NCBI GenBank assembly: GCA_045648665.1 | Contig: JAZROL010000014.1 | Location: forward strand, 1 to 63,844 | DNA length: 63,844 nt | DNA from: Candidatus Enterousia sp. | GTDB lineage: Bacteria > Pseudomonadota > Alphaproteobacteria > Rs-D84 | Direction of reading: 5' to 3' | Shown here: positions 18,075 to 58,884 of the stretch, piece after piece | Numbering within the stretch: position 1 is the stretch's first letter | Layout: each line of letters opens with the position of its first letter | Program-made: the position numbers and the translations under genes | Notes under the pieces: generated by a model | Told to the model about the DNA's origin: nothing | The model's database searches: none | What the model saw: the letters and a program-made list of their open reading frames with translations, nothing else

Positions 18075-18100
18075 AAAAACCGCCCAAACGGGCGGTTTTT
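18073..18100. terminator. Bidirectional terminator between pfk and dnaK
   Basis: A-run, then ACCGCCC-AAAC-GGGCGGT, then a T-run. Confidence 0.75.
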
Positions 18101-18119
18101 CATAAGGAAGGGGACCTTA

Positions 18120-39100: not shown

Positions 39101-42100
39101 GATTGTGTATGTCTTAATCTTCCATTTCGCAGTAAATGTTTTACCGCTTTCATATTCCCAAACAAATGTTTCACCAGCATCCCTGTTATTACCACTGTCA
39201 TCAACCCAGCCATCAAAATCATAACCTATTCTAGTACACCCAGTGTTTCCCGCCACTGTAAATGCTTGACCATATGTCGCAGTAGCCAACGGTACCACGC
39301 CAGTACCAGTACCACAACTATATTTTACGATATATGTATCAGTGGTAAATTGTGCATATAATACCTGTTCGCCATTCCATCCATCTTGTACCACTCTAAA
39401 TGGATATTGACATCCTTGGTTGCTCTCACACCACCCTGCAAACACATGGTGTGGTTTAGAATAATCAGCTAAACGTTTCCCATATTCTTCAACAGTATAC
39501 GTATTCGGCTTTAAATTATCCAATATATCGTCGCCATCTTTATAAACTATGGCATATGTGTTCGCATTATATATACATTGATTGTTGTTATAATAATTCT
39601 TACCACTGATATAAGTGTAATCTTGTCCTCTTTCTTCACAATCTTTATAACAATCATTTATTGAATCTGAACCAATTTCCGCATTTGTATAAGGAGCAGG
39701 GCATATGTCTTTACCACAATCTTCAGTTGCAGAATATATGCAACGCGCACCACCACAATATTTACCCGCTTCATCACATGGTATACACTCTGTTGTACCT
39801 GCCTTTAAATATGTCCCGACCACACAATCTATTGGTGCAGGTTCCCAATTCGCATACACAATGATATCATGACCCAAAGTGGAATCAACTACCTTAAAAC
39901 CTACTACTTCATTACCACCACCGTTCGACGCAGTCCTCCACCCCTTAAACTCATACCCCTGTTTAGCTATACTCGTCGGATATTCTATCTTTCTTCCTTT
40001 GTCTTCTACGCTAAACTGTTTTACCGCATTTCCAATCTCTGGCAAATCACTGCCATCCATATCTTTGTATATCACTTTATATTTAATAGGTTCAAAATGC
40101 CCTATGTATGTTATATCTTTCGTGCAATTACCATCTAATATACCTGGTTTGCTTAATACAGGACACGTTCCGCCAGATATGCACCAACCCTTAAACTCAT
40201 AATACGGTCTTTCAGGATTATTTAATTCTGTTCTTTGGGTTTCTATGTCACACGCTACAGGATTATCAGCACCTGTTATCTTGTTCCCAGATTCATCTAT
40301 ATATTTTACCTGATAACCCTGTTTGCCCCATATAGCATATAAGGTCACATCGCTTTCAAAGTTGCGTGTTATATATTCGTTATATTCTGCTTCTGTATCT
40401 GCACTGTTCGTTGACCATCCTTTAAATGTATAACCTTCATTGCTTATCTCACCAGATCCTCCTATGTAACATGGTAATGCATCATATGTACATCTTACAC
40501 TTCCCTTGTCCCCAACACCTCCATTAGCATTAAATGTTACATCATATCCTATCGGTGCCCATTGTGCATATAAATGCGCATCGTTATTAAACGCAGTATC
40601 ATTCGTCACCAAATTGCCGTTTGCATCAGCCCAATTTTGGAATATATATCCAGTATATTCTGGTGCTGGCAATTCCAATTTGTAATTATCAACAGTCGTA
40701 TTGTTATCACCATAATGTATGTTCTCTGTAATAGGTGTTGCACCATTGTTTAGATGATAAATCACAGTCGCATAACATTGTTCTGGCGCTGGATTTTCAG
40801 CAACATCAGCATGTTTGTATATCTTGCCACAGGTAGTAGGAACCGGAGCCAGATCTTTCCATACAGCGTATAATTCTATATCTCGATGGGCGTTTCCATA
40901 AACCCCTGTATATTCGTGATTATCACGTTTATCTATCCAACGAACGAACTCTTTTCCAGGTTTAAAATTTTTACTATTCATATAATCCACATCAGGATAT
41001 CTCTTGAAATTTCCGCCTGTGTTTTCAATAGTATAATATGTGTATTTTTCATCTATACCGGATATTATTTCATCTTTGTCTGGGCCATCCCCACCATAGA
41101 AGTATGTTATGCTATATTTTTTCAAATCATAATTTGCAATATATTTGCGTGGACCTTCGCAGGCGCTTATTTCTACGTTTTTGTTTGGTGTATCACAAGA
41201 TTCACCAGCTAAACACCAGCCTGTAAATTCATATCCTGTCCAAACAGGATTATTCAACGTTATACCCTGGGTGTCCATTGAACATTCAATCGGGTTTGTT
41301 TCACCAGATTCCAATACGCCTGCGCCTAAATTATATTCTATGCGGTATTGTACAGGGGTCCATTTTGCATAGAAAGATTGTGTATCAATTGTCCCGGCCG
41401 GTATAGTTATTGTTTTCGAACATTCACCGGTTAATTCAGCATTATTGCACCATCCATCAAAACTATAATGTTCTTTCTGTGGTTCAGACGGTGTAATTTC
41501 ATTTGCCTGACTATCAGAATAACTATATGTATTTGGCGTAATTTGTGGATCTTCACCATCAATATTCAGTAAATTTTCCCCATCATAATATCTTATACGA
41601 TAATTCAAAGGTGCCCACTGTGCATATAAATAAGAATCAGTCAATCCATCGGTTTTGCTTATATAACGATCGAACCAGTTACCATCCCAATTTTGTGCGG
41701 ATGTCATATCTGGATTATAATATTTCGTTCCACCATCACGTTGATTAAAATATCCCAAAAATACATAGGCTGTACGGGTCGGTGGAAGTAATTCTTCGCC
41801 GTTTATATTAACCGTCGGCATATCGTTATTTTCGTCTGGTTCAAAGATGGTCGTATTAAGCGTATCATCGTTAGCGGAATAATTTTGATAAAGTTTAATC
41901 ACCGGTGCACATGAAACTTTTTGTCCAGGAACAGTTTCTGCATTTGGATAATTCCATGCTTCTTCAAGACCAGTTATATATTGTGCGGTTCCCGCCGGAC
42001 AAGACAAAGCAACACTAGTGTTATTAAATACATTGTACATAGCATAGTTTTGATGTTGTGGGATTGTTGGCTCGTTCCCGAAGAATTTAGGTGGAATATA

Positions 42101-45100
42101 CGACGTTGTCACATTATCGCCCCAATCAAAAGTATCCAATTTTTTATCGCCATTAAAAGTGCTATAAAATTCTTCTGGGCTTGAAATGTTATCTATCCAA
42201 GAAAACAAATCTGCTGGGACAGTGGTTAAATTGGTGCAATCTGCAAATGTTCCGTTAAAACATCTTTGGCCGACATAAATATTATCTGTTTCAATATCAA
42301 ACAATTTGTGTGGTAAGGATGTTAATCCTGTGCAACCACGGAATGTGTTTTCAAAGCCTGCGTTACAATGTGGTGATTCTTTGAATAAACCAGAAGGCAA
42401 TGATTTTAACCCTGTGCAACCATAAAATGTGTTAGCAAAAGTATATGAACCACTTCCAACATTAGCAAATAAATCTTGTGGTAAAGATTTTAATCCGGTG
42501 CAATCACGGAATGTGAGGTAAAACAGAAGACTTGCGCTACCTGAAATATCCTTAAACAATGTTGATTTACCATTTTCATCAACTGGCAGAGATGTTAAAC
42601 CACTGCACCCATGGAATGTGCCGTAAAACATCAATTGTGCGCTACCGTGTATTCCATCAAATAATTCAGCTGGTAAAGATGTTAATTTGTCGCTGTTTAT
42701 AAACGTGTCACAAAATTGTGGTTGTTTCGATAAAACATCAGAACCATCATTTAATGTTGGGAAAATATCGCCCAATGAACCAGATATTGATGCAATCTTT
42801 GGTCCAGAAAATTTTATGGCGGAACGACAATTAATAAGGTAAATATATCCGCTTATTTCTGTTCGTTCTGGATTGTATCCATTTGCATCCCCGGCATATC
42901 TAATAGTGTGTTCTGTCCCAGATTCCCAAGAACATATACCAGAAACGGAATTTGTATTTTGTTTGTCTATTTTGCCGACACGTTCGCCACTGTCGTTAAA
43001 ATTACCACCCGCACCACAATCTATATAAAATGTACCGCTTGCACCGATAGTGGTTGAAAAAGTTCCGCCGTCATCAACAGTATTTACAATGAATTCAGGT
43101 TGTTGACATTCTATATTTCCATTTCCATCAACATATCGTATGTCGTTAGGGTTTTGACACTGATACTGTGCGCGCAAAATTATGTTTCCTGTTGATCCAG
43201 TCGGTATGTTTGGTATAGAAGAACAATCCCCGCCATCCCATTCACATGACCAGCCGCTGAATACATATTCATTATTCACAGGATTGCTTATGGTTATATT
43301 TGGTGATTCAATAGTATAAGTGCCCGGATGATTTGCGCCATTTGGCCATGGATTATCCCCCAACAAATGTTCATATGTGATAGTATATGTTTCCAATTCC
43401 CATTGTGCATAATATGTCAATGGTTCCATTGCGCCGGCCGGTATTGTTATAGTATTTTTATTATTCCCATTCGTGCAATATTGTTGTGAATTATAAGTAG
43501 TGCACCAACCGGTAAACACATGTCCCCGATTAGTTGGTTGAATTTGTTGCGGAACTCTTTGTGCTTGTTCATTTGCGTTGTACGAATAATTAGCGGTTCC
43601 AAGTGTAGTATCACCGTTTTTAAATGTTATTTTCAGTGTGTCTGTTTCGCAACGCATGTTTTCACCAAGCGAACCAAACAATGCAGTACGAATGTCCGTA
43701 CTTTGTTGGGTAAAGCCTGCGCAGGTGTCCGCGCACGCACGTACGCAAGCGGCCCCGTAGTCGGCGTAGAACACCCAATTACCCGCGACAGCAATGTTGT
43801 TTCCACCCAATAACGAATAACCGTCCATTTTGCACCAGCAATATTGTCCATCCGTACTTCCCGCGGTTAAAGCCCCGGATTCCTTGATGTTGCCATTGTT
43901 CATTCCATAGCCCCACGGATTTGTTCCCTCCGTTGATGTACATGTTGATTTTCCATGAACAACCGTTCCATCTGGCCAAGCAATTGACCAATCACCATTG
44001 TTCATTCCTATATGGCTTCCTTGACCATTGTCACCACTATTGGAACCGCTGTCACCATTTAATGCGCGATATTTGATGTCTTGATTGTTGTTCCATATTA
44101 CTGTTTGGGTCACATAGTTTGATAACACACCATTTGTGTTATTTGAATAATATCCGGTATCGCAATTCAAAGAAGTTATCGCGCACGCGCCAATTCTATC
44201 CAGGAAAAATCCATCACGACTATCCGTTATATCAACAGTTCCAAAATCCGCATATTCTCTATATGATGCTTCACCATTGGTTGAATTACCGTATGTTGCC
44301 GTTCCATGTCCACCGGTATACGGGTTTAATAATGCACAAGATACATTTCCGGTGTTATAACACATTTCACCATTTGTTGCGCCAGCATCGGAATATGGGA
44401 AATTTCCATCATAGTCCAAACAATCGAAACATTCTTCGTCTTCCATATATGTCCCTGCCGGACATCCTGTTTGTTCCCACTGTGCGGTATAAGTTAAATC
44501 ACCAGTGGCGCCGGCCGGTATATCTATCGTATCCTTTTGTGCACCTTCTGTGCAATAAGTAATGTCTTCATAAGTTGTACACCAGCCAGTAAATGCATGA
44601 TCGTCTTTTGTTGGTTCTATAGAAACGTCCAGTGTTTGTGAATTTACGCTGTATGTATAAGTACTATTTCCAACCGTATCATTTTCATTTTTGAGTGTAA
44701 TATTATATGTTTGCAAAGAACATTCGCGCATATCACCCAAAGCCCCAAAAGCACCAGTTCTGGTATTGGCGGCTTGTTCAATAGCAACAACGCAATCCAT
44801 GGCGCAATTCTCGGCACATTCATCCGCGCTTTGATAGTATGTTTCATTTTCATTCCACCAGTTGCCAGATGTACTGATATTATTTCCACCACGCAGTGAA
44901 TATCCGGTCATTTTACACCAACAATAATTACCTTTTTTTGCGCCGGGTGTATAATTAGCAGGCGACACAGCATACAAATCTCTTACTACGCGTAACGCCG
45001 TTTCATCCAAAGAATATTCCCCAGAAAGATACTTTTCAAAAGCTGTTTGCATCAAAACAATTTGTTCAGCGGTGGCACCAGCGGCTGCAAGCCCAGCAAG

Positions 45101-47386
45101 AAACTCTTCTGGCGTCATTTGTCCTTGTGTCACTGCATCACCATAAGTGTCAATATAACCGGCAGGATACTCGCTTTGACAAGATGATGTTCCATAAACC
45201 GCGGTTCCGTCCAGCCATTCTGCGCGCCATTCATTTGATTGCAGACTATTAAACACAGATGGCAAATCAGGCGAAGAGCAATCTGTGCTTATATAATTCA
45301 TATTTGCCCCACCACCATCTTTGTAAGAATCATGTGCAAAACGACAATAATCAGAATTCTTTGAATACCCAATAAACGCATTTTCAAATATATAATCAGA
45401 CAAGACACCCTTTGACCCGGTCAGTTCATACCCGGTATCGCAAGCCAATGTATATTCACATGCATTTACACTGTCCATCGTGCACATATTATCAGTATGT
45501 TCATCCAGCCATGTTTCAGGATAAACACCTAAATAATCTTTACATGTTACATTTGCATTTGTATATGTTGCCGTTCCATGTCCCATTAAATACGGATTTT
45601 TATCACCGCAAGCGACGGTTTTCGTATTATAACAATACGCAGAATCAGTTATTCCCGCGGCAGAATATGGATATGCAGACGGACACGATTTGCATTCTCC
45701 ATTTTCCAGATATTCACCCGCCTGACAAGAAATTGAAACCCAACGCGCGTATAAAGTTATATCACCACTTAATTCAAAATCGTCTAAATCAGTCACTTTA
45801 TCACCGGAAAAATCGTTCGAAGTATACCAACCCTCTAATTCGAAACCGTCTTTTGTCAGGTCTTGTGGTAATAATTCTTCTGGCACATTATAACCATCAT
45901 CATCGGAATAATCGTCGCCATAATAAATTCTTTCTGGTTCCACAGTTGTTTCATTATTAGTGACGAAATTCACAGTGGCATAGCATCCGTATTCATCGGT
46001 ATTTGCTCCTTCATCAGAATGTGAATACACATTACCACAATAATCGCACATAACCTGTGGGAAATCACTTTGTTCGCCCAACCATTCAGGGATATAATGA
46101 GTATACATATTTACCGGACATGATGTTGCAATTTGGGTATTGTTGAACATAGAAGATGTTGCGTCTATGTTATCAGTATTCGTTAAATCTGCATTAAAGA
46201 ATCCATATGGTATATAATCCGGCTCATCTGGATTCGTCACAACCCCATTATGAGAAAACTTTTTCAAATTTGTACAAGCTACAAAAGTAGCGTTAAATGC
46301 CGATCCTTCAACATTACCAGAAATACCACCAAATAAATTGTCCGGTATCGATGTTAATCCTGAACAAATAGCGAATGTGCCAACAAACATCTCGTTTGCC
46401 GCACTAGAAACACCTTTGAACAAGTCCGCTGGCAATGATTCTAATCCGGTACAATCGGCGAATGTTTCACCAAACATATGTTCTGCATTTCCATAGACAC
46501 CTTTGAACAATGTTGAATTACCATTTTCATCGGTTGGCAGCGATGTTAATCCACTACAACCAACGAAAGTGCCCATAAACATACTTTCAGCCGCACCAGA
46601 AATACCTTTAAACAAGTCTGCAGGCAGCGATGTTAATCTATTACAATCACGGAATGTGTCAAGGAACCGAGGTTGTTTTGATAAATCATTTGAACCATCA
46701 TTTAATGTTTTGAATATAGAACCCAACGAACCTTCTATCGTCGATATTTTACCAGAATTGTTTGAATTTCTATAAACATCGTAAAACATGATAGCAGCAC
46801 TATATATTTCATCAATAGTTCTATACCCATTTGCCAAACCAGCATATTTAATAGTGTGTGCATTACCGTTTTCCCAATCGCATTTGTATTCATACATATC
46901 TGTGTTTTGTTTGTCTATAAATATAACCCTTTCGCCAGTATTTGTACTTTGATACGGGCGGTTGATAATTATTGATAAGTTTCCACCTTCGCCACAATCA
47001 ATGTAAAATTCACCACTCGCACTGATCCAGGTTGAAAACGTTCTTTCGTCATTGGCCGTATTCACAGTAAATTTCGGACAAATCAATTTTAATGTTAAAT
47101 CTGAATCTGATGTGATTGTGTCACCAGGAAAATATCGTGTATCGTTACTATTATCCCACCACCAACAACTCTCATCCGCCAAAACAGGATTTGTCACGGA
47201 ATTACATAATTGCGCAGATGTTGTATATGTTTGCGTTCCATTTGTTCCACATTGTGTGACGGGCTGATTGTTTTCATCAACGTATGTAATTGTTTCTGCA
47301 AAAACACTTTGTGACACACCAAACACCACACACAACGCAAAGAGCATTGCTTTTACAAAACGTTGAAAACCGCGTATTATCGGCAT
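36173..47386 (-). CDS. Giant secreted/surface repeat protein (3737 aa). It has >20 Listeria/Bacteroides-type repeats, three copies of a ~360-aa module ending in BspA-like Cys-containing LRRs, and eukaryote-like C..G.Y.....C..C repeats
   Basis: An 11.2-kb uninterrupted ORF in an AT-rich genome. The signal peptide is MLFALCVVFGVSQSVFAE. Recurrent motifs include G(Y/F).F.GW...(L)YA.W, F..C.GLTSLP..LF.GISG, and CQAGEYLENGECKSC / CPAGTYMEDEECFDC. Confidence 0.9.
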   Translation of the reverse strand: MPIIRGFQRFVKAMLFALCVVFGVSQSVFAETITYVDENNQPVTQCGTNGTQTYTTSAQLCNSVTNPVLADESCWWWDNSNDTRYFPGDTITSDSDLTLKLICPKFTVNTANDERTFSTWISASGEFYIDCGEGGNLSIIINRPYQSTNTGERVIFIDKQNTDMYEYKCDWENGNAHTIKYAGLANGYRTIDEIYSAAIMFYDVYRNSNNSGKISTIEGSLGSIFKTLNDGSNDLSKQPRFLDTFRDCNRLTSLPADLFKGISGAAESMFMGTFVGCSGLTSLPTDENGNSTLFKGVYGNAEHMFGETFADCTGLESLPADLFKGVSSAANEMFVGTFAICSGLTSIPDNLFGGISGNVEGSAFNATFVACTNLKKFSHNGVVTNPDEPDYIPYGFFNADLTNTDNIDATSSMFNNTQIATSCPVNMYTHYIPEWLGEQSDFPQVMCDYCGNVYSHSDEGANTDEYGCYATVNFVTNNETTVEPERIYYGDDYSDDDGYNVPEELLPQDLTKDGFELEGWYTSNDFSGDKVTDLDDFELSGDITLYARWVSISCQAGEYLENGECKSCPSAYPYSAAGITDSAYCYNTKTVACGDKNPYLMGHGTATYTNANVTCKDYLGVYPETWLDEHTDNMCTMDSVNACEYTLACDTGYELTGSKGVLSDYIFENAFIGYSKNSDYCRFAHDSYKDGGGANMNYISTDCSSPDLPSVFNSLQSNEWRAEWLDGTAVYGTSSCQSEYPAGYIDTYGDAVTQGQMTPEEFLAGLAAAGATAEQIVLMQTAFEKYLSGEYSLDETALRVVRDLYAVSPANYTPGAKKGNYCWCKMTGYSLRGGNNISTSGNWWNENETYYQSADECAENCAMDCVVAIEQAANTRTGAFGALGDMRECSLQTYNITLKNENDTVGNSTYTYSVNSQTLDVSIEPTKDDHAFTGWCTTYEDITYCTEGAQKDTIDIPAGATGDLTYTAQWEQTGCPAGTYMEDEECFDCLDYDGNFPYSDAGATNGEMCYNTGNVSCALLNPYTGGHGTATYGNSTNGEASYREYADFGTVDITDSRDGFFLDRIGACAITSLNCDTGYYSNNTNGVLSNYVTQTVIWNNNQDIKYRALNGDSGSNSGDNGQGSHIGMNNGDWSIAWPDGTVVHGKSTCTSTEGTNPWGYGMNNGNIKESGALTAGSTDGQYCWCKMDGYSLLGGNNIAVAGNWVFYADYGAACVRACADTCAGFTQQSTDIRTALFGSLGENMRCETDTLKITFKNGDTTLGTANYSYNANEQAQRVPQQIQPTNRGHVFTGWCTTYNSQQYCTNGNNKNTITIPAGAMEPLTYYAQWELETYTITYEHLLGDNPWPNGANHPGTYTIESPNITISNPVNNEYVFSGWSCEWDGGDCSSIPNIPTGSTGNIILRAQYQCQNPNDIRYVDGNGNIECQQPEFIVNTVDDGGTFSTTIGASGTFYIDCGAGGNFNDSGERVGKIDKQNTNSVSGICSWESGTEHTIRYAGDANGYNPERTEISGYIYLINCRSAIKFSGPKIASISGSLGDIFPTLNDGSDVLSKQPQFCDTFINSDKLTSLPAELFDGIHGSAQLMFYGTFHGCSGLTSLPVDENGKSTLFKDISGSASLLFYLTFRDCTGLKSLPQDLFANVGSGSYTFANTFYGCTGLKSLPSGLFKESPHCNAGFENTFRGCTGLTSLPHKLFDIETDNIYVGQRCFNGTFADCTNLTTVPADLFSWIDNISSPEEFYSTFNGDKKLDTFDWGDNVTTSYIPPKFFGNEPTIPQHQNYAMYNVFNNTSVALSCPAGTAQYITGLEEAWNYPNAETVPGQKVSCAPVIKLYQNYSANDDTLNTTIFEPDENNDMPTVNINGEELLPPTRTAYVFLGYFNQRDGGTKYYNPDMTSAQNWDGNWFDRYISKTDGLTDSYLYAQWAPLNYRIRYYDGENLLNIDGEDPQITPNTYSYSDSQANEITPSEPQKEHYSFDGWCNNAELTGECSKTITIPAGTIDTQSFYAKWTPVQYRIEYNLGAGVLESGETNPIECSMDTQGITLNNPVWTGYEFTGWCLAGESCDTPNKNVEISACEGPRKYIANYDLKKYSITYFYGGDGPDKDEIISGIDEKYTYYTIENTGGNFKRYPDVDYMNSKNFKPGKEFVRWIDKRDNHEYTGVYGNAHRDIELYAVWKDLAPVPTTCGKIYKHADVAENPAPEQCYATVIYHLNNGATPITENIHYGDNNTTVDNYKLELPAPEYTGYIFQNWADANGNLVTNDTAFNNDAHLYAQWAPIGYDVTFNANGGVGDKGSVRCTYDALPCYIGGSGEISNEGYTFKGWSTNSADTEAEYNEYITRNFESDVTLYAIWGKQGYQVKYIDESGNKITGADNPVACDIETQRTELNNPERPYYEFKGWCISGGTCPVLSKPGILDGNCTKDITYIGHFEPIKYKVIYKDMDGSDLPEIGNAVKQFSVEDKGRKIEYPTSIAKQGYEFKGWRTASNGGGNEVVGFKVVDSTLGHDIIVYANWEPAPIDCVVGTYLKAGTTECIPCDEAGKYCGGARCIYSATEDCGKDICPAPYTNAEIGSDSINDCYKDCEERGQDYTYISGKNYYNNNQCIYNANTYAIVYKDGDDILDNLKPNTYTVEEYGKRLADYSKPHHVFAGWCESNQGCQYPFRVVQDGWNGEQVLYAQFTTDTYIVKYSCGTGTGVVPLATATYGQAFTVAGNTGCTRIGYDFDGWVDDSGNNRDAGETFVWEYESGKTFTAKWKIKTYTITYLDTNGEELPQEIINQILAEDKTYTIESNKNTGGVKVYPKVNRSGYNFNGWKENGSIYTGFNVRNRVASGVANITVYASWELAPIDCERGTYLQAGTTECTSCDEAGKYCGGARCIYSATEDCGKDICPAPYTNAEIGSDSINDCYKDCEERNGYTHTGYDWYDKRHADQCAYTPITYNIYYELNGGTLNALVQSPRPYTVNMGIITDLPTPGYEGGRFTEWQDEEGNRVESVDTSIARDITLYAQYTCDENNIEYTDDNGIKHCIPAKFIVNTVNDGGTFSTWISASGEFYIDCGEGGIFGETHLYNGGYTFIRIPASGKRVGKIEKLPSYLIQYTCQFASAGEHEIKYAGLADEYNDSPNMTAIRFSNPIYNNNNAPKIASISGSLSAIFPTLNNGSNDPSQQPQFIKTFMGCTGLTSLPIDENGNSTLFKDVFGATDYMFESTFSGCSGLASLPEDLFKGISGVADSIFENTFESCSNLKIIPDNLFNGISSVKNMMFLGTFAGCTGLTEIPANLFSNITGDVDTSAFSTTFFGCTNLKKFSPAVIDNPDEPDYIPYGFFSADLTNTDNINNVTDYMFYNTQIAKSCPANMYTHYIPDWLSTQSDFPQVMCDGCGDVYPHSVKGDNDTHESCYAIVTYHNGEDTTTQNVNYTESTADKYGLNELELPDVTKDGYKFTGWFTADGTAVTEQSEFTGDIDLYAQFARQITIHFDDNANGYNTTDKIPDDVVCTEGEECIETYIVRPPRTQGRPRRTGYAFDSWNTEANGTGVKFEYEEGMMPDNGREFVADLSGVFNLTNEHEITLYAQWTPLNYRIRYYDGEGEIDDIEPKQYVYSDEDQNITTVEPRRNRYAFVGWCDNEELTGDCQKTLAIPGGTTGPLTYYAKWEYVPFVCSTDKYLRFGEDDADKLCLSETKISGRGLPSLTFQIGNKKYYLGLTKDSNMPINETSTKKMRVLRRGVKFNAFDASVLQ

Positions 47387-50374: not shown

Positions 50375-50908
50375 TTATTGTGCTGGTGTCGTTCTTAATC
50401 TCCACCCGCTGAAGATGTAACCTGTTCTGGTTGGGTTTGTGGCGGGTAATGTTATTGGTTGATCGTATGTACATTGATTTGTTTCATACACTGTATCGCC
50501 AACACTATACCAATTGATGTTGATTGTATTTGGATCAAATACAGGGATAAGATTTGCAACATTATTATCGTTCGCATTTAAAAAATTTTTAGAACAAGTA
50601 TATTGTGTTGATGCGGTTATGGGTTTAGCTTCCAAACCTTGCGATTGTGTTTCGTTAAATTTAAATTGACCACCCGGGCAATTATACCCAGTTGGGCAAG
50701 AACGACACCCCAAAGTATTTGCAGGTAAAAACTGACCAGACGAACAAGTATAAACAGTTGGTTCGTATACTGGCAAAAGGTTGGCGATATCATTATTCGT
50801 TATAAAATTATCCAATTCACAACCGTCGACAAAAGTTTGATCTATGAATGTGGCATAGGCATTATTTGTTAAAAAGAACAATAAAAATATAAATATTTTT
50901 TTGTTCAT
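50375..50908 (-). CDS. Secreted family protein (177 aa): Cys-rich N-terminal part plus one Listeria/Bacteroides-type repeat ending in GWRLRTTPAQ
   Basis: Signal peptide MNKKIFIFLLFFLTNNAYA, then CSSGQFLPANTLGCRSCPTGYNCPGGQF. The C-terminal ITLPATNPTRTGYIFSGWRLRTTPAQ is nearly identical to the end of 55113..58469. Confidence 0.8.
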   Translation of the reverse strand: MNKKIFIFLLFFLTNNAYATFIDQTFVDGCELDNFITNNDIANLLPVYEPTVYTCSSGQFLPANTLGCRSCPTGYNCPGGQFKFNETQSQGLEAKPITASTQYTCSKNFLNANDNNVANLIPVFDPNTININWYSVGDTVYETNQCTYDQPITLPATNPTRTGYIFSGWRLRTTPAQ

Positions 50909-50929: not shown

Positions 50930-51652
50930 TTATTCGTTATTAATTGCGGGGCCAGCCGTGAAATCGCCAGTGCCTGAGTTATAATAAAATTTATATTCTA
51001 TACTATCGTACAAACATGCGATTCCGTTGCTGTCGATAACCGGTATAAAATCATGAACCAAAACATCGTTTTCATAAATTTGGAAATAATAAACTCTCAT
51101 ATATGCAGGGCTACTACCATTTTTAGAAAATATATACATGTTTTCAGCGGGGTAAGAGGCTCCGTTAGCACTTCCGCTGTAATAAACACCGTTTGTGTAA
51201 ATAGATATTGTTGATTGTTTTGTTTCTATTTCTGTTATAGAATTAATATCAGTTGGGGCAACAAGCTGATTGTTGTTACCATGAAAGAAACGATATCTAT
51301 TAGAATAATTATCAAGCCCAAGACCGGAGCTTCCAAAAAAACTACCTGCTTTTGTGTTTATATATATCTTTGTTTTTATGTTCGCATTTGCTGTTGCTTT
51401 ATACCCCGTATCAATCCATTGGCCTCCTGTGCTTTCGATATATTCAAGTGGTGTGTATTTATCAACATAGCCTTTGAAAGTATAGCCGCTTTTTTGTGGA
51501 ATATTATTCGGTAAAACAACGTCGCCACCAACAGTGCAAGTTGTGGTTTGATTTATTGTCCCGTCCGTATTTAACCAATTTATTGTTATTGTTTCCGCAA
51601 ACGCAATTGTGCAAATACATATCACAGATAAAAAAATTAAAAAACGTTTCAT
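50930..51652 (-). CDS. Secreted family protein (240 aa), paralog of 58..852
   Basis: Trimmed to the ATG at 51652 (MKRFLIFLSVICICTIAFA). SGYTFKGYVDKYTPLEYIESTGGQWIDTG and FIPVIDSNGIACLYDSIEYKFYYNSGTGDFTAGP align with 58..852. Confidence 0.8.
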   Translation of the reverse strand: MKRFLIFLSVICICTIAFAETITINWLNTDGTINQTTTCTVGGDVVLPNNIPQKSGYTFKGYVDKYTPLEYIESTGGQWIDTGYKATANANIKTKIYINTKAGSFFGSSGLGLDNYSNRYRFFHGNNNQLVAPTDINSITEIETKQSTISIYTNGVYYSGSANGASYPAENMYIFSKNGSSPAYMRVYYFQIYENDVLVHDFIPVIDSNGIACLYDSIEYKFYYNSGTGDFTAGPAINNE

Positions 51653-51900
51653 CCCTTTCCCCTCTTTTTTGAACGACACTAAAATTACACCGCCAAGAAA
51701 TCAGGCGGTCGGGGGATTACCAAATCAATACGCTGTGATTCTGCGGCTTTCGGGTTAACCCTGTTGTATAACACACAGTCCCCCGATCTTTTTCAATCAG
51801 GGATTTTGGCGCAACTGCACCGTACGTATCAGGCTTGGTATAGCCCCGAACCCGTCTTCCTGGGGTTCGTTGCGATTTTAACAAAATTTTTATACTTAAG
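51653..51900 (-). promoter_or_regulatory. Promoter plus conserved structured 5' leader, copy A
   Basis: A -35/-10-like TTGCCT...TAAAAT lies near 51870..51895. Blocks CGGGTTCGGGGCT, AAAATCCCTGA, TCGGGGGACTGTGTGT, AGGGTTAACCC and TCCCCCGACCGCCTGATTT..GGCGGTG are shared with 54809..55112. Confidence 0.55.
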
Positions 51901-51907
51901 GCAAGAG

Positions 51908-51928
51908 AAAAACAAAAAATCCCCCAAA
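51908..51928 (-). terminator. Rho-independent terminator downstream of rpsD
   Basis: AATCCCCC-TTTTT-GGGGGATT followed by a T-run in minus sense. Confidence 0.8.
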
Positions 51929-51963
51929 AAGGGGGATTGAATAAACTTTCCCGTATTTTTTTA

Positions 51964-52596
51964 TTAACGAGAATAAAATTCAACGACCAATTCAGGTTGC
52001 ATTTGAACAGGATATGGAACATCTGCAAATGCAGGAACGCGTGTGAATGTTGCTGTGAAATTCGCGCTGTCCACTGTGATATAATCTGGGAAGTTACGAT
52101 CGCCAGCTTCCAATGCCAATACAACCAAAGGCATTTGTTTTGCTTTTTCGCTTACCGTGATAACATCACCAGGATTTACACGATAAGAAGCGATTTTTAC
52201 GCGTTTGCCATTAACATAAATATGACCATGGCTGACCAATTGACGTGCTGAAAACACTGTTGGTGCCAATTTAGAACGATAAACAACAGCATCCAAACGG
52301 CGTTCCAACAAACCAATCAAATTATCAGGTGTGTCGCCCTTCATATTGTCCGCTTCCGCATAATATTTGTGGAATTTCTTTTCGCCAATATTACCATAAT
52401 AACCCTTTAATGTTTGTTTTGCGCGCATCTGTTTTGCGTAATCAGATGAAGAAGCCCCACGGGAAGTTGGCCCATGTTGACCCGGTTTATATTTGCGTTT
52501 GTTAAATGGAGATTTAGCCTGGCCCCAAAGGTTAACACCCAATGAACGACCAATTTTTAATTTACGTGTGCTACGTTTTGCACCAGCTCTTGCCAT
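51964..52596 (-). CDS. rpsD: 30S ribosomal protein S4
   Basis: LKIGRSLGVNLWGQAKSP...KPGQHG and the S4 domain RLDAVVYRSKLAPTVFSARQLVSHGHIYVNGKRV. The start is trimmed to the ATG at 52596. Confidence 0.95.
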   Translation of the reverse strand: MARAGAKRSTRKLKIGRSLGVNLWGQAKSPFNKRKYKPGQHGPTSRGASSSDYAKQMRAKQTLKGYYGNIGEKKFHKYYAEADNMKGDTPDNLIGLLERRLDAVVYRSKLAPTVFSARQLVSHGHIYVNGKRVKIASYRVNPGDVITVSEKAKQMPLVVLALEAGDRNFPDYITVDSANFTATFTRVPAFADVPYPVQMQPELVVEFYSR

Positions 52597-53015
52597 AATA
52601 TTTTTCCTTTTAGTTTTTGGTTTTTCTTGTGCCGAACATTTCACAGAATCCTTATTTCAAATGGGACCAAAAGACACCATTGATTATTCAGTTCTGGTTA
52701 TCCAGCGCGCGTATTTTAAACTGTTTTTTTAAAAAAAGCAAGCGTTTTAACCGATTATCTTGTGTTTAAACGCTACTAAGCGAATATTCAACATGCTTTT
52801 TTTATAATGTCTTGATTTTTTGCTAAAAAAATAATACTATTTACGATGTGAAAAGGGATTCAGGATATTTTGGCTGAATCTTGTCCCAAAATGTTCGATT
52901 GGGACTGCAAATCAGGTCGCACACCCCAATGATTCACTACGAATAAAGATATTTTTCTTTATTAGCAATGAATTTGCCGGGTGTGCAAAGGTTAAATATT
53001 AAAAAAGGATTTTTA

Positions 53016-54773
53016 ATGGTAAAAGTTAAAGAACATAAAAATATTGCCGATAAACCGGCGCACGAAAGCGATAAAAACGACGATAAAATATACTTTATGG
53101 CATTGGGCGGTTTGGAACACGTTGGCCAAAATATGTATATTTATAAATATCGTGGCAAATATTTGATTGTCGATTGTGGAATGGGATTTTTAGAAGAAGA
53201 AATCGGGGCAGGCGACGTTCAATATTGCGATACAACGTGGCTGGAAAAGCACAAAAAAGATGTGATTGCCTTTGTTATAACACATGGACACGAAGACCAT
53301 ATTGGTGCGCTTAAATTCATTTGGCCAAAGTTCAAAAAGCCTATATATTGTACGCGTTTTCCGGCGGAAATTTTACGTCGTACTTTTGCAGGGCTTGAAA
53401 TGGATTTCAATCCAGATAAAGATATTATCGAATTTGATCATCATGGCGCAATATTAAATTTGGATCCATTCGAAGTCGAAACTTTCCATGTTTCTCACTC
53501 TATACCCGAAGCGCAAATGTTGATAATCAAAACCCCTGCGGGTAAAATTTTACATACGGGCGATTGGACTTTTAATGATGGAAACCCAATAGAAGAACCA
53601 ACAAATTATGCGCGTTTGGCGGAAATAGGATCCGATCCGAAACTGTTGGCGTGCGTCTGTGATTCTACATCTGCGGAAAGACAAACCCCACAAACAACGG
53701 AAGAACAAGTTCGTGAAACTTTGACCGAGATTATGAAAAAAGCTCCAGGACGTGTCTTGGTGACCGGATATTCAAGAAGTCTGGCGCGTATAAAGATGTT
53801 TGCAGAGGCTGCGCGTGCCGCTGGTCGTGTTGCGTGCATCAAAGAACGCAGCAATCCAAATCCGGTGCCTTACGTTGGATTGCCAGAATTTCGCGAAATT
53901 GGTATAGAAGATGGCTATCTTGGCAAAGACGATGTTTATACTTTTGATGAAATCAAGGATTTGCCGGCTGAAAAACAAGCGATATATTTGACAGGTTCCC
54001 AGGGTGAAAAATTCGCAATGTTAACACGCCTTTGCAATGGGCATGTGAAAGAATTGAAATTGATGCCTACGGACACAGTTGTTTTCAGTGCGATTATTAT
54101 TCCGGGGCGCGAACAAGATGTTTCTGCGCTTTACAATAAATTGGCGCGCATGGGAATAAAGACGTACACTATATTTGATACGGATAATTTGCATGCGTCT
54201 GGACATGCGGGACGTCCTGAATTCGAAAGATTTTATGATATGGTTCATCCTCAGGTTTCAATCCCAATGCATGGGGAATATATATCCGAAATGTTAAACG
54301 GTAAAATGGCCATGGAACGTGGTGGTGCTAAACACATGATGGTTGTCCACAATGGCGATGTAATCGCTTTGAAAGACGGTACAGAACCATACGTATGTGA
54401 ATCTATCCCAACCGGCTTTATAGTTATGGAGGGTGAAACAGAACGCAGCACTGATGATCCTGTATATAAAACCCGTAAAAAGATAGCGTCAAATGGTGCG
54501 ATATTCGTTACTTTGCCGATTGATAAACGTGGTTTCTTAAAAGGAATTCCAGAGGTCTCCAGCGTTGGCATTTTTGAAACAGATGATACTGGATTTATGA
54601 AACGCCAAATTCAAATGGAAATCACTAAAGCGATTGACGATTTGACCAAAACAGAACGCAAAAATCACGATAATTTATACAGGGCGGTTCAAACTGCATC
54701 TAATAAAGTCGTTCGTGCGGCATTGGGGGCGGATAAAAAACCGCAATACAGTGTCCATTTTGTGTTGAAATAA
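53016..54773 (+). CDS. rnj: Ribonuclease J
   Basis: Metallo-beta-lactamase motif ITHGHEDHIGAL, a beta-CASP region and the HASGHA motif. The start is trimmed to the ATG at 53016. Confidence 0.9.
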   Translation: MVKVKEHKNIADKPAHESDKNDDKIYFMALGGLEHVGQNMYIYKYRGKYLIVDCGMGFLEEEIGAGDVQYCDTTWLEKHKKDVIAFVITHGHEDHIGALKFIWPKFKKPIYCTRFPAEILRRTFAGLEMDFNPDKDIIEFDHHGAILNLDPFEVETFHVSHSIPEAQMLIIKTPAGKILHTGDWTFNDGNPIEEPTNYARLAEIGSDPKLLACVCDSTSAERQTPQTTEEQVRETLTEIMKKAPGRVLVTGYSRSLARIKMFAEAARAAGRVACIKERSNPNPVPYVGLPEFREIGIEDGYLGKDDVYTFDEIKDLPAEKQAIYLTGSQGEKFAMLTRLCNGHVKELKLMPTDTVVFSAIIIPGREQDVSALYNKLARMGIKTYTIFDTDNLHASGHAGRPEFERFYDMVHPQVSIPMHGEYISEMLNGKMAMERGGAKHMMVVHNGDVIALKDGTEPYVCESIPTGFIVMEGETERSTDDPVYKTRKKIASNGAIFVTLPIDKRGFLKGIPEVSSVGIFETDDTGFMKRQIQMEITKAIDDLTKTERKNHDNLYRAVQTASNKVVRAALGADKKPQYSVHFVLK

Positions 54774-54780
54774 TTGATAA

Positions 54781-54808
54781 AGCCCCGTTTTGGGGCTTCT
54801 TTTTTTTC
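54781..54808 (+). terminator. Rho-independent terminator after rnj
   Basis: AGCCCC-GTTTT-GGGGCT followed by T10. Confidence 0.85.
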
Positions 54809-55112
54809 TCTTGCTCTGTAAATAATTTTTTTGCTAGGATAAACTTGAGCCTGAATAAAATCGGGTTCGGGGCTTTAGAAGGCCCAGTCAATTCGGTGCG
54901 AAAAGCATCGTCAAAATCCCTGACTGTTTAGAAGTGTCGGGGGGCTGTGTGTCATAGAATAGGGTTAACCCAAAAACCACGGAATCATTAATTGACTGAT
55001 TTTCTAACTCCCCGACCGCCTGATTTTTCTCGGCGGTGATTAGTTGTTGCGGGCCCAGGTGTGCGAAGTACAGCCGGGACAGGTTGAAAAAAAAGAGGGA
55101 AAGGAAACAACA
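54809..55112 (+). promoter_or_regulatory. Promoter plus conserved structured 5' leader, copy B
   Basis: TTGCTC (54811..16), 18 nt, then TAGGAT (54835..40). The same conserved blocks as copy A are present. The terminator-like hairpin ACCGCC/GGCGGT lies at 55015..55037. The RBS GAGGGAAAGGA precedes the GTG at 55113. Confidence 0.55.
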
Positions 55113-58100
55113 GTGAAACGTATTTTGCAAAAAATCTTATTTGCATTTGCAATCGTCACGACTGCGTTGTTTTCCACCGATTCGTTCGCCGAATGTCCGA
55201 CATATTCTTCTGTTGCTAACAGTAATGGTGTATACACATATAATGGTGTCACTGTGATTGAAAAAGGTGGCGCGTCTTACGATGGAAACTGTATAAATGG
55301 TATAGCAATTGTCGCAAATGGTGATATTTCTGATTTAACAAATGGTAATGTTTCGGTGCTGTATTGTTTATATAATCCGCAAACTGGTAATTATGATTAC
55401 GCATGTACTGCACGTGCGGAAGTATGCGATGCGAACGAATTAGCCACTATATCGAGTGGCACGACATTATCGTTAGTTCAAACATTTGCGACAATGATGG
55501 GATGGACAGCATCTGATTTAGCAAGCCCAGAAAATTTATTTGTTTATACGCCGGCCACCACACCATTGTATCAACGTTGCAGTGCGTCATCTGTATGTCC
55601 GGCTCATTCATCTACTTTGCCTTCTGGGCCAATGGCTGAATTGGTTGGAACTGGATACGATTTTAATAATGATGGCGAAATAACATCAAATGAATGTTTT
55701 ACCGCACGTGTATATGGCCAGATGGGTATGATTGTTGCAGAGTATGGGGCGAATAACCTGATTTCAGAATTCCCAGAATTTTCGGATTTAATATCATTAG
55801 TATCATCACAAAATACATTTGATAGTGCAAATTCGATAAACCAGATTGATACGCCAGTTGGTGCGGCAATATGTTTTTATAATTCCGCAACCGGCAATTA
55901 TGATGGTGCATGTTCCCCGGCCATAATGGGATGTAATGATAATTTCCTTGGTATGTTTTCAAACAGTTATCTGGGGCCAATGACTTTGTTGACTGCATTG
56001 GCACAGGAAAACGAAGTGAGTATATCTGCATTGGGGCCAACAAACCAAACTGTTTATCCATATACAGGTTCCACGATTCAGGCCGTTGATACATGCGATC
56101 GAACCTGTCCAGTTGGATATTATTGGACGGATTGGATGGATGGATGTTGGCAGATACAATCACAATACGACTGTGAAAATGCTGGATATTATTGGTATAA
56201 CGACACCTGTATTGGCCGGGAAGAGTATGAACAAACCTCACAAACCGAATGTGAATCTGCTGGCAATCATTGGGATAATGGAAATTTGACATGCATCCCG
56301 GCTGCACAATATGCCTGTGAATCCGATGGTGATCATTGGGATAACGAAGGTTCGACGTGTATCCGGGCTGCACAATATGCCTGTGAATCTGCTGGCGATG
56401 TTTGGTATAACGAAGAATGTATGTCCCAGGAACAATATGCCTGTGAATCTGCTGGTGATGTTTGGTATAACAACACATGTATGGGTACGGAACAATATGC
56501 CTGTGAATCCGCCGGTGATCATTGGGATAACGAAGGTTCGACGTGTATCCCCGCTGCACAATATGCCTGTGAATCTGCTGGTGATGTTTGGTATAACAAC
56601 ACATGTATGTCCCAGGAACAATATACCTGTGAATCTGCTGGCGATTATTGGGATAACGAAGGTTCGACGTGTATCCCGGCTGCACAATACAATTGCGAAG
56701 TCGCTGGTGGTGAGTGGGATGGTGTAGATTGTACACTTTATCACCCACAACAAGAATGCGAAGACGCTGGTAATATTTGGTATAACGAAGAATGTATGTC
56801 CCAGGAACAATATACCTGTGAATCTGCTGGCGATTATTGGGATAACGAAGGTTCGACGTGTATCCCGGCTGCACAATACAATTGCGAAGTCGCTGGTGGT
56901 GAGTGGGATGGTGTAGATTGTACATTTGATGATCCAGATGACCCACAAGAAGAATGTGAATCTGCTGGTGATGTTTGGTATAACGAAGAATGTATGACCC
57001 AGGAACAATATGCTTGTGAATCGGACGGTAATATCTGGTACACCGATTCAAGTACCAGTACCACAACGTGTGTTGATTCAAAATTTACATTAACAACAAC
57101 ATCAACAAACTCATTTCAATTTAAAATATCCGCCGCCGGAACATTTTATGTGGATTGTGGTAATGGCGGAACGTTGACATCTAGTTATTCAGGGCAAATC
57201 GGTGTTGATGGCAAAACAATTACACATGGTGCCCGTGTGGCAGAAGATGTTTATACGTGTTCATACGGAACATCGTCAACACATACAATCTTGTTTGCTG
57301 GAACTGCGACAGGATACAGCGCTTCGGGTTACAGTGCCGCGATACGGTTCAGTATAAGCGATTCTTTACCAGATACAAATGCACAAAAGATTTCGTCTAT
57401 TTCTGGGTCGTTGGGTGCAATATTTAGAACGGTTGCAAATCCACCAAGTGGTATGAATGGCCAACCAAGTTTTTATTATTTATTCCGCGGAGCATCAAAT
57501 ATGACAGGTTCAATACCAGCAAACCTTTTTGCTGGAGTATCAGGAGCGCCAACAAATAGAATGTTTATGTGTTCGTTTGAAGGTTGTAGTGGATTAACCG
57601 GTTCTATCCCTACAAACTTGTTCAGTGGTATATCCGGTGCCCCGGCACAAGAAATGTTTAGAGGTACTTTTTATAATTGCAGTGGATTAACTGGTTCAAT
57701 ACCAGCAACCTTGTTTAGCGGTATATCTGGAGCACCTGCATTAAGGGCGTTTGGTAGCACCTTCCTTGGATGTAGTGGATTAACCGGTTCAATACCGGCA
57801 ACATTGTTCAGCGGTGTGTCTGGTGCTCCAGCGGACATGTTATTTTCTGGTGCGTTCTCCGGGTGCAGCGGATTAACAGGTTCAATACCGGCAACATTGT
57901 TCAGCGGTATATCAGGTGCCCCGGCATATGCTATGTTTGATCATACATTTTATGATTGCAGTGGATTAACTGGTTCGATACCGGCAACATTGTTCAGCGG
58001 TATATCTGGTTCGCCAGCTGAAAATATGTTTTATGGTACATTCGATGGTTGCAGTAATTTAAGTGGTTATGTTCCACCAACTTTATTTGCGGGTATTTCT

Positions 58101-58469
58101 ACATCGTCAACCGCCACTAATCAAATGTCTTATGTATTTAATAATACAGAATTGGCAACATCTTGCCCTGCGGATACCTATCAGTACACAACCGGATTCG
58201 AATCGTATTTTAGTGGAAAGGTATCTTGTACACCATGTCCAATCGGTACAACTTCATCGGCTGGTTCAACCAGTGTTGAACAATGCAATGGTAAAGTAGT
58301 AATAAATTTATATTGGTATTTGGATGAGAATGCAACAACGCCGTTAACTGTACAACCTGCTGCACAACAGTGTACTTATGGTGAAAAAATAACTTTGCCA
58401 GACACCAACCCAACAAAACCAGGTTATATCTTTACCGGCTGGCAGTTGCGTACAACCCCAGTGCAATAA
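55113..58469 (+). CDS. Large secreted family protein (1118 aa): N-terminal region, 14 tandem Cys-pair repeats, a BspA-like LRR module, and a terminal Listeria/Bacteroides-type repeat ending in GWQLRTTPVQ
   Basis: The start is set at the GTG at 55113 (KRILQKILFAFAIVTTALFSTDSFA, a signal peptide). Repeats of (Q)Y.CE.AG..W......C are present. The module KFTLTTTSTNSFQFKISAAGTFYVDCGNGG...GCSGLTGSIPATLFSGISGAP is homologous to the giant-gene modules. Confidence 0.88.
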   Translation: MKRILQKILFAFAIVTTALFSTDSFAECPTYSSVANSNGVYTYNGVTVIEKGGASYDGNCINGIAIVANGDISDLTNGNVSVLYCLYNPQTGNYDYACTARAEVCDANELATISSGTTLSLVQTFATMMGWTASDLASPENLFVYTPATTPLYQRCSASSVCPAHSSTLPSGPMAELVGTGYDFNNDGEITSNECFTARVYGQMGMIVAEYGANNLISEFPEFSDLISLVSSQNTFDSANSINQIDTPVGAAICFYNSATGNYDGACSPAIMGCNDNFLGMFSNSYLGPMTLLTALAQENEVSISALGPTNQTVYPYTGSTIQAVDTCDRTCPVGYYWTDWMDGCWQIQSQYDCENAGYYWYNDTCIGREEYEQTSQTECESAGNHWDNGNLTCIPAAQYACESDGDHWDNEGSTCIRAAQYACESAGDVWYNEECMSQEQYACESAGDVWYNNTCMGTEQYACESAGDHWDNEGSTCIPAAQYACESAGDVWYNNTCMSQEQYTCESAGDYWDNEGSTCIPAAQYNCEVAGGEWDGVDCTLYHPQQECEDAGNIWYNEECMSQEQYTCESAGDYWDNEGSTCIPAAQYNCEVAGGEWDGVDCTFDDPDDPQEECESAGDVWYNEECMTQEQYACESDGNIWYTDSSTSTTTCVDSKFTLTTTSTNSFQFKISAAGTFYVDCGNGGTLTSSYSGQIGVDGKTITHGARVAEDVYTCSYGTSSTHTILFAGTATGYSASGYSAAIRFSISDSLPDTNAQKISSISGSLGAIFRTVANPPSGMNGQPSFYYLFRGASNMTGSIPANLFAGVSGAPTNRMFMCSFEGCSGLTGSIPTNLFSGISGAPAQEMFRGTFYNCSGLTGSIPATLFSGISGAPALRAFGSTFLGCSGLTGSIPATLFSGVSGAPADMLFSGAFSGCSGLTGSIPATLFSGISGAPAYAMFDHTFYDCSGLTGSIPATLFSGISGSPAENMFYGTFDGCSNLSGYVPPTLFAGISTSSTATNQMSYVFNNTELATSCPADTYQYTTGFESYFSGKVSCTPCPIGTTSSAGSTSVEQCNGKVVINLYWYLDENATTPLTVQPAAQQCTYGEKITLPDTNPTKPGYIFTGWQLRTTPVQ
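56160..57072 (+). repeat. In-frame tandem array of ~14 units (about 54-78 bp each) encoding Cys-pair repeats. It contains a perfect 133-bp duplication (56603..56735 = 56792..56924)
   Basis: Direct reading of the DNA and the translated sequence. Confidence 0.9.
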
Positions 58470-58807: not shown

Positions 58808-58884
58808 TGGCGCACCCAGCAGGAGTCGAACCTGCAATCTTTGCCTTCGGAGGGCAACGCATTATCCAGTTGTGCTATGGGTGC
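58808..58884 (-). tRNA. tRNA-Arg (anticodon CCG), CCA encoded
   Basis: Manual cloverleaf. The acceptor is GCACCCA/TGGGTGC, the anticodon arm is TTGCC-CTCCGAA-GGCAA, and the T arm is GCAGG-TTCGACT-CCTGC; 77 nt. Confidence 0.9.

Follow-up and report, generated by a model that had tools for sequence, protein, structure and literature searches.

The 63,844-nt stretch of Candidatus Enterousia sp. DNA analysed here (contig JAZROL010000014.1, hereafter the window) carries three copies, A, B and C, of a structured RNA element, each lying directly ahead of a gene. Our results suggest that each copy is the ~200-270-nt 5' leader of an independently transcribed secreted-protein gene or two-gene operon, and that it probably acts in cis as a bistable transcription attenuator in which helix P1 of a three-way junction is the antiterminator. 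P1 is formed by two segments, seg2 (its 5' arm) and seg3 (its 3' arm); seg2 has an alternative partner upstream, seg1, and seg3 runs into a terminator-like hairpin (Table 1). Judged by sequence comparison, the core of the element is a divergent relative of sRNA-Xcc1 (Rfam RF02221), a described kind of RNA. What is new here is that a junction of the sRNA-Xcc1 type is joined to a terminator and an anti-P1 segment, in a lineage of hosts and a gene context that are both new for it.

Aligned over the promoter block and ~230 nt of leader, copies A and B show a mean column identity of 77%, and the alignment contains all the invariant blocks listed in an earlier, sequence-only reading of this DNA. The complementarity of seg1, seg2 and seg3 and the ACCGCC/GGCGGU hairpin lie where that reading had placed them, and the third leader, C, does keep the same segment logic with a different sequence. 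The predicted fold of each of the three is more stable than its own shuffles (z = -3.0 to -3.8), and a filters-off search of the whole window found no copies beyond these. The similarity greatly exceeds chance and extends well past recent duplicates. R1, a covariance model built from A and B alone, matches dozens of loci in other genomes, in which the homologues of the copy A protein are 32-54% identical and belong to gut and rumen Alphaproteobacteria, the named ones being Candidatus Enterousia or Rs-D84. In nearly every homologue locus R1 locates the element on the strand of the gene, mostly ending ~35 nt before the start codon. R2, a covariance model over seg1, the junction and the terminator, gives 79 matches in 61 of 80 genome loci; the bit scores of C are 21.6 with R1 and 28.3 with R2. 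A single metagenome-assembled genome of ~1 Mb, RUG12675, holds at least 23 copies, each just 5' of a gene.

The junction helices P1, P2 and P3 covary across 51-76 distinct homologues. Covariation scores were judged against shuffles and slid controls. Of the cells in the R1 alignment, which holds 51 distinct sequences, 94.7% are paired, and compensatory change is seen in 20 of 22 pairs; the score of 0.51 compares with 0.18 in shuffles and no more than 0.10 in slid controls. The R2 alignment, with 76 distinct sequences, is 93.6% paired, and 22 of its 25 pairs have compensatory change. P1 has two main alleles, GUCGGGGrG/CUCCCCGAC in A and B and GGUUGGAGG/CCUCCAACC in C. Because G.U intermediates are frequent, selection appears to act on this RNA strand and not on the DNA.

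Directly after P1 a hairpin of the form (G/A)ACCGCC-loop-GGCGGU(U) is present in 50 of 50 copies examined; on average it has 8 bp and -10.4 kcal/mol, and 5.9 of the 9 nt that follow are U. The stem covaries (CCGUC/GACGG, CCACC/GGUGG), a G-C to A-U swap being seen in 10-16 sequences, and in 47 of the 50 the base of the hairpin shares nucleotides with the 3' arm of P1. The overlap measures 2-4 nt, against the 1-2 nt given in the sequence-only reading; it is 4 nt in C and its sequence type, flanking A-U pairs included, while in B, whose hairpin has -10.6 kcal/mol, positions 55015-55016 are common to both helices.

On the other side of the junction, seg1 sits 3-12 nt 5' of P1, and its duplex with the P1 5' arm has a mean of -11.9 kcal/mol versus -7.0 for shuffled upstream sequence. 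It varies in step with the P1 allele, and the three segments covary as a set; in alignment A10, which comprises 40 full leaders and has copy C as its reference row, seg1:seg2 is 95.3% paired. Since seg1 has G.U where seg3 has G-C, it can be read as a weakened copy of seg3. When P1 is forced and compared with seg3 left free, the mean difference in free energy is -0.07 kcal/mol, P1 being favoured in 26 of 51 leaders. Minimum-free-energy folds of whole leaders, begun at the inferred transcription start (n = 74), contain seg1:seg2 in 70 leaders, the terminator in 65 and P1 in 4, and P1 and the terminator never occur together (0/74). In these models P1 is a conserved alternative structure that would exclude the terminator. 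A leader-peptide attenuator was also considered and is ruled out by the absence of a conserved short open reading frame (ORF): an ORF with a Shine-Dalgarno-like sequence ending near seg1 was found in only 6 of 74 leaders, none of them conserved.

Upstream of seg1 lie three hairpins, Ha, Hb and Hc, with an optional extra one, Hd, in some leaders of the A/B sequence type. In alignment A10 Ha is 95% paired, with compensatory change in 7 of 8 pairs, and the equivalent of Hc is 85% paired, also with compensatory changes; between A and B themselves, where Hc had been said to covary, the changes are one-sided only. Our comparison also revealed a long-range helix missing from the earlier account. The Hb loop can pair with J3/1, the strand of the junction that directly precedes seg3, and the sequences of both vary among paralogues, related leaders having for example UUAAGAAC/GUUCUUAA, UUCAUAAC/GUUAUGAA, CUAGAAAC/GUUUCUAG and UAACGAC/GUCGUUA. 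In C the loop CUCAAAA(C) pairs with (G)UUUUGAG. This helix is 87% paired in the majority register, with double changes in 71 cells and a covariation score of 0.558 (shuffles 0.177, slid controls at most 0.19), and a per-leader search finds the complementarity in ~64 of 75 Enterousia leaders. The conserved GGGGCU block is accounted for by this helix, which the GGGG might extend by 4 bp into seg3, a stretch that shows no covariation. The first folds had paired the 5' block CGGGUUCGGGG with seg3 and the terminator arm, and this was rejected, as GGGUUC is the 3' arm of Ha.

Each leader has a candidate promoter of its own. That of B is predicted to start transcription near 54847, its promoter block is also kept in A, and an extended -10 TGnTAnAAT is found ~7 nt 5' of Ha across 40 related leaders. 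Strong canonical terminators stand right before two of these promoters, that of rpsD (51918-51938, minus strand) ahead of A and that of the RNase J gene (54780-54798, plus strand) directly before B, and leaders A and B therefore each open an insulated transcription unit.

We propose the following mechanism. In an OFF fold, seg1 and seg2 would form a local hairpin, and the Hb loop and its 5' strand would pair with J3/1 and the start of seg3; both strands of P1 would thus be held apart, the (G/A)ACCGCC...GGCGGU(U) hairpin with its U-tract would be completed, and RNA polymerase would presumably terminate there, 15-30 nt before the ribosome-binding site (RBS). In an ON fold, seg2 and seg3 would close P1 of the sRNA-Xcc1-type three-way junction. 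P1, the presumed antiterminator, would claim 2-4 nt at the base of the terminator stem and, because these nucleotides are taken, the terminator could not be completed and polymerase would read through into the gene. The Hb-loop:J3/1 helix would be nested in the OFF fold, closing a multi-branch loop, and would be a pseudoknot in the ON fold. Sequence comparison is the source for the helices, for the two partners of seg2, for the terminator hairpin and for the location ahead of the gene. Some input would be expected to shift the balance between the folds; it could be a small ligand or a protein at the conserved junction and P2 loop, a global signal, or folding kinetics.

This arrangement has counterparts among known switches. 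The pbuE adenine riboswitch is an ON-type transcriptional riboswitch with a three-way-junction aptamer, and in riboswitches of this type, as proposed for the leader, the closing helix P1 lends its 3' strand to the 5' base of the terminator, so that P1 prevents termination. The leader differs in its extra anti-P1 segment and in its long-range helix to an upstream hairpin; its terminator overlap is only 2-4 nt, and no known riboswitch family in Rfam matches in the window. A trp-type attenuator has mutually exclusive 1:2, 2:3 (antiterminator) and 3:4 (terminator) pairings, and the leader likewise has three mutually exclusive pairings; unlike the trp type, it lacks a conserved ORF, its upstream region is full of covarying hairpins and its 2:3 helix encloses two more hairpins. 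As an architecture, the attenuator of the sequence-only reading is strongly supported by a terminator in all 50 copies, covarying seg1, seg2 and seg3 and isoenergetic folds; that the leader could be a riboswitch, the other suggestion made there, is hypothetical.

Table 1. Positions of the three leaders and their parts in the window (promoters are predictions)
Feature	Position	Strand	Remarks
Leader A	51653-51904	minus	whole leader
A promoter	51875-51904	minus	TTGCCT, 18-nt spacer, TAAAAT with TG before it; from promoter scan and likeness to B
A upstream domain	51796-51868	minus	Ha to seg1
A Ha	51848-51868	minus
A Hb	51832-51847	minus	loop UACCAA (51835-51840) pairs with J3/1 UUGGUA
A Hc	51808-51821	minus
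A seg1	51796-51803	minus
A three-way junction	51708-51787	minus	RF02221 match; R1 and R2 matches
A P1 5' arm (seg2)	51779-51787	minus
A P2	51741-51778	minus
A P3	51723-51740	minus
A J3/1	51717-51722	minus
A P1 3' arm (seg3)	51708-51716	minus
A terminator-like hairpin	51689-51709	minus	followed by UAAUUUUA and Shine-Dalgarno GAGGGG
A start codon	51650-51652	minus	ATG of gene 50930-51652
Leader B	54811-55112	plus	whole leader
B promoter	54811-54840	plus	-35 TTGCTC 54811-54816, 18-nt spacer, extended -10 TGcTAGGAT 54832-54840
B Ha	54847-54868	plus	GAGCCUG / CGGGUUC; arms of A and B differ compatibly
B Hb	54869-54885	plus	GGGGCUUUAGAAGGCCC; loop UUAGAA (54875-54880) pairs with J3/1 UUCUAA
B Hc	54895-54909	plus	GGUGC-GAAAA-GCAUC
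B seg1	54917-54924	plus	UCCCUGAC; partner P1 5' arm; proposed anti-antiterminator
B three-way junction	54936-55016	plus	RF02221 match and covariation (alignments A6, A9)
B P1 5' arm (seg2)	54936-54944	plus
B P2	54945-54982	plus
B P3	54983-55001	plus
B J3/1	55002-55007	plus
B P1 3' arm (seg3)	55008-55016	plus
B terminator-like hairpin	55015-55049	plus	ACCGCC 55015-55020 / GGCGGU 55032-55037, weak U-rich tail
B Shine-Dalgarno region and start codon	55094-55115	plus	G-rich; GTG start (55113) of gene 55113-58469
Leader C	853-1094	minus	whole leader, second sequence type
C promoter	~1060-1094	minus
C Ha	1033-1053	minus
C Hb	1019-1032	minus	loop CUCAAAAC / J3/1 GUUUUGAG
C Hc	992-1008	minus
C seg1	977-984	minus
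C P1 5' arm (seg2)	960-968	minus
C P2	~936-959	minus
C P3	918-935	minus
C J3/1	911-917	minus
C P1 3' arm (seg3)	902-910	minus
C terminator	879-905	minus	then UUUAAU
C start codon	850-852	minus	ATG

The sequence-only reading had taken the element for no known RNA family and proposed a comparison with Rfam. At gathering thresholds this comparison returns two tRNAs only in the whole window; at relaxed thresholds RF02221 matches B (54936-55024, 41.4 bits), A (51699-51788, 40.1 bits) and C (894-968, 30.8 bits). None of the three reaches the gathering score of 53 bits, and all three align over the full length of the model, positions 1-87 of 87. In the other direction, the Enterousia-trained R2 recovers the accepted member in phage Aaphi23 (L092:1483-1594; 36.8 bits, E = 2.5e-6); it gave no match to the RF02221 copy of a Shiga toxin (Stx) phage in L093. 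The claim of novelty at the level of the family is therefore not upheld. The GGGUUAACCC hairpin is the tip of P2, AAUCA/UGAUU is P3, and some unpaired nucleotides, such as AUACAAnA, agree with the RF02221 consensus. In P2 the unpaired consensus is AUACAAUA ... GAAUAA; A and B carry AUACAACA/AUAGAAUA and GAAAG/AAAAA, and in the second sequence type P2 is shorter and carries GAAUAUA...GAAUAAG. Two other weak Rfam matches in the window, to RNAI (18071-18168, minus strand; 33.4 bits, E = 0.024) and, antisense to a tRNA gene, to Plastid-ycf2 (58810-58884, plus strand; 34.1 bits), are probably due to chance.

Seven reference RF02221 loci, from phages Aaphi23, P13374 (an Stx phage), Pmp3 and Mcat16 and from Neisseria, Aeromonas and Nitratidesulfovibrio records, score 68.8-86.1 bits. 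In every annotated case the element ends 35-50 nt 5' of a coding sequence (CDS) on the same strand (ant, 'antitermination' or hypothetical), and in 7 of 7 the loop of an upstream hairpin pairs with J3/1, as UCGAAA/UUUCGA, CUCAAAA(C)/(G)UUUUGAG, UAAGAA/UUCUUA or CUUGAACA/UGUUCAAG. The gene-proximal position and this pairing are features proposed here and lie outside the Rfam definition. As the seven bona fide loci share them, RF02221 probably covers only part of a larger leader. The window elements thus have in common with sRNA-Xcc1 a three-way junction, made up of a G+C-rich P1 of 9 bp, a P2 whose internal loop agrees at least in part (AUACAAnA / GAAnA), and a P3; an RCC tail and small hairpin after P1; the position 35-50 nt ahead of a same-strand gene; and the pairing of an upstream hairpin loop with J3/1. 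They differ in that their hairpin after P1 has a U-tract, which makes it an intrinsic terminator, and that Enterousia leaders have seg1 a few nucleotides before P1. Furthermore, Ha and Hc take the place of a CCCGUCAG-loop hairpin and U7 run that proteobacterial and phage versions have, the second Enterousia sequence type has a shorter P2, and the Enterousia hosts are Rs-D84 Alphaproteobacteria with the element before chromosomal secreted-protein genes, whereas sRNA-Xcc1 precedes mobile-element genes (ant, symE).

The CCCGUCAG-loop hairpin is conserved between the upstream hairpin and the junction in the accepted loci (L092-L098, e.g. L093:1420-1480 and L092:1405-1450). The hairpin is followed by a U6-7 run and then AUGYCC, an alternative GCGG/CCGC pairing flanks it, and it resembles an intrinsic terminator. 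Neither of the two main leader types of Enterousia has it; something similar is seen in a third leader type from Alphaproteobacteria (L080, L086, L088, L091).

In the literature sRNA-Xcc1 has been handled as a trans-acting small RNA (sRNA). In Xanthomonas it is a stable 88-nt RNA with ends mapped by rapid amplification of cDNA ends (RACE), the 5' end being the first base of P1 (PMC2996969), and in enterohaemorrhagic Escherichia coli (EHEC) it is an 89-nt RNA about as abundant as CsrB and with low ribosome coverage (PMC5331693). It lies 5' of symE in Xanthomonas integron cassettes (10.1101/2025.06.18.660453) and 5' of an ORF6N-domain gene in APSE phages. In a limited literature collection we found no paper proposing a cis-regulatory role or an upstream pairing for it. 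We tentatively speculate, as a proposal far from assured, that sRNA-Xcc1 may be not a free-standing trans-acting sRNA but the 3' domain of a widespread ~150-250-nt cis-regulatory leader (upstream hairpin loop:J3/1, junction, and a hairpin overlapping P1), a conformational switch that would answer a ligand or factor and gate the antirepressor and toxin genes of prophages and integrons. Enterousia would have taken it over, together with a newly gained intrinsic terminator, for dozens of secreted-protein genes, ~3% of the genome.

Several observations count against an attenuator. The overlap between P1 and the terminator, on which the switch would depend, is small. A and B have the weakest terminators of the family: their loops measure 9-11 nt, only 4-5 of the next 9 nt are U, and a simple terminator scan calls neither. 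In 7 of 7 accepted sRNA-Xcc1 loci, from gamma-, beta- and delta-proteobacteria and their phages, the small hairpin after P1 is without a U-tract, so termination after P1 is not a family-wide property. The discrete and abundant 88-89-nt junction RNA of Xanthomonas and EHEC fits a processed or trans-acting RNA as well as a product of attenuation. Finally, the downstream genes (ant, symE, secreted proteins) are heterogeneous and have no metabolic theme, which argues against a metabolite ligand.

Alternatives were also weighed. The junction could be a separate sRNA comparable to C4 or IsrK (RF01695, RF01394), freed by termination or by a processing step in which RNase P might cut at the base of P1, and acting in trans, with the downstream gene expressed only incidentally by readthrough. 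The stable RNA of Xanthomonas with its mapped ends and the CsrB-like abundance and low ribosome coverage in EHEC favour this possibility, as does an RCC sequence after P1. C4 and IsrK are also structured RNAs inside the leaders of antirepressor-type operons, with short terminated and readthrough forms and an upstream loop complementary to a downstream site in the same transcript, and they co-occur with sRNA-Xcc1 in the same region of Stx phage P13374. The phage versions, in which Hb is followed by a terminator-like hairpin and U7 run, could free a short RNA with a J3/1-matching loop. The window, unlike P13374, has no sequence or structure match to RF01695 or RF01394, and a separate short RNA is not expected in Enterousia, since the upstream hairpins are without a terminator, Hc having no U-tract. 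Moreover, at least 23 copies in one ~1-Mb genome, each ahead of a gene and most with no space for a promoter belonging to that gene, are hard to reconcile with an RNA acting in trans, and the Hb-loop and J3/1 sequences differ between paralogues of the same genome, a locus-specific pairing of the kind expected in cis. We regard this possibility as unlikely; release of the junction as an sRNA and attenuation in cis are compatible and not mutually exclusive.

Some further observations concern these RNAs. In P13374 isrK, C4 and sRNA-Xcc1 (61.8, 77.4 and 79.6 bits) lie on one strand within 1.1 kb (L093:463-650, 1486-1569), on either side of a 'regulatory protein' gene and ahead of an 'antitermination' gene; an annotated 'antB2' CDS (1451-1597) overlapping the RNA is probably spurious. 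The RCC after P1 (ACCC, GCCC, ACCA, CGCC) is found in all family members, at 55016-55020, 51704-51708 and 898-902 in the window and in L092-L098, and resembles the 3' end of a tRNA acceptor stem. C4 RNA is processed by RNase P, and the RCC tail together with the mapped 5' end at the base of P1 makes such processing of sRNA-Xcc1 possible. IsrJ of Gifsy-1 was considered as an equivalent of Xcc1, and nothing was found in its support. The mechanism of IsrK has been described (PMC4825925).

Control might instead be mainly translational, a free C-rich seg1 or seg3 (anti-Shine-Dalgarno-like) pairing with the RBS and the hairpin after P1 being a spacer. The sequences allow this: seg2 is Shine-Dalgarno-like (GGAGG or GGGGAG), seg1 and seg3 contain CUCC or CCUCC, the downstream Shine-Dalgarno is GGGGGA, GGAGG or GGGAGG, and the phage relatives have no U-tract after the hairpin. 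However, any G-rich RBS pairs with CCUCC, so the complementarity itself is uninformative, no covariation is seen between the RBS and seg3, and the U-rich tract that follows the hairpin in nearly all Enterousia copies would be needless for a spacer. A translational mechanism seems to us correspondingly doubtful. We think it improbable, too, that the leader is a constitutive, non-switching element, such as a 5' structure that stabilises the mRNA, a site of processing, or an insulator reducing expression by a constant fraction. Such an element would agree with the absence of a shared metabolic theme among the genes, but it is hard to maintain given that seg2 has two covarying partners, of which seg1 is systematically weakened, and that the folds are isoenergetic across 51 leaders. 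A feature of the DNA (mobile repeat, operator or recombination site), which the many copies per genome and the high sequence conservation of P1 and the CCGCC block might bring to mind, is effectively refuted by the strand-specific covariation, with compensatory change at 20-22 helix positions and frequent one-strand G.U intermediates, by the fixed orientation and distance to the start codon, and by the fact that no terminal repeats or transposase genes were seen.

The genes downstream of all copies found encode proteins with signal peptides, most of them of a ~250-aa family and several of them unrelated secreted proteins, and so are mostly not the large surface-protein genes of the sequence-only reading. 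Those after A and C encode a protein with a signal peptide and an InlB B-repeat (Flg_new), and gene 55113-58469, after B, a secreted protein of 1118 aa with a signal peptide and the Pfam domains Flg_new and Ephrin_rec_like. The C-terminal domain of the protein family has the motif DFIPV..D..G..C[ML][YF]D...FYYN.GTG.F..G. R2 matched none of six Firmicutes and Kiritimatiellia loci that have the same C-terminal domain (L072, L075, L077, L081, L082, L089), so the RNA follows the lineage and not the protein domain. As a rule a second gene, with no Pfam match or a weak one to Flg_new, follows 0-5 nt after the leader-controlled gene (50375-50908 on the minus strand of the window; L001:1928-2695, L003:10770-11528, L010:10729-11466), so that the regulated unit is typically a two-gene operon. 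The window search found no leader copy at the gene of an apparent giant surface protein of 3737 aa (36173-47386, minus strand); the leader is therefore not general to the surface-protein genes of this genome. In most copies a G-rich RBS and the start codon come 15-30 nt past the terminator, a spacing that leaves no room for a promoter between terminator and start codon. In some loci (L049:5875-6000, L067:5900-5958, L035, L069, L071, L003) 100-280 nt of G+C-rich repeats resembling repetitive extragenic palindromic (REP) sequences, e.g. GCCGTTCTGGCTGTTCTTGG, twice, are found between the two.

Enterousia-like genomes are smaller than 1 Mb (PMC12306168). The surface and secreted repertoire of Enterousia is probably governed mainly by the leader, as a genome of ~1 Mb carries at least 23 copies before secreted-protein genes. 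With its bistable fold, three covarying alternative helices and ~75 natural variants, the leader is a good candidate for work on orphan riboswitches and RNA switches. More widely, sRNA-Xcc1 occurs in Stx phages, integrons of Xanthomonas, islands of Xylella and further mobile elements, and until now it has been regarded as an sRNA that acts in trans and is linked to virulence; the gene-proximal position that it shares with the leader and the covarying helix between upstream loop and J3/1 make a cis-acting role testable in E. coli lysogens and in Xanthomonas.

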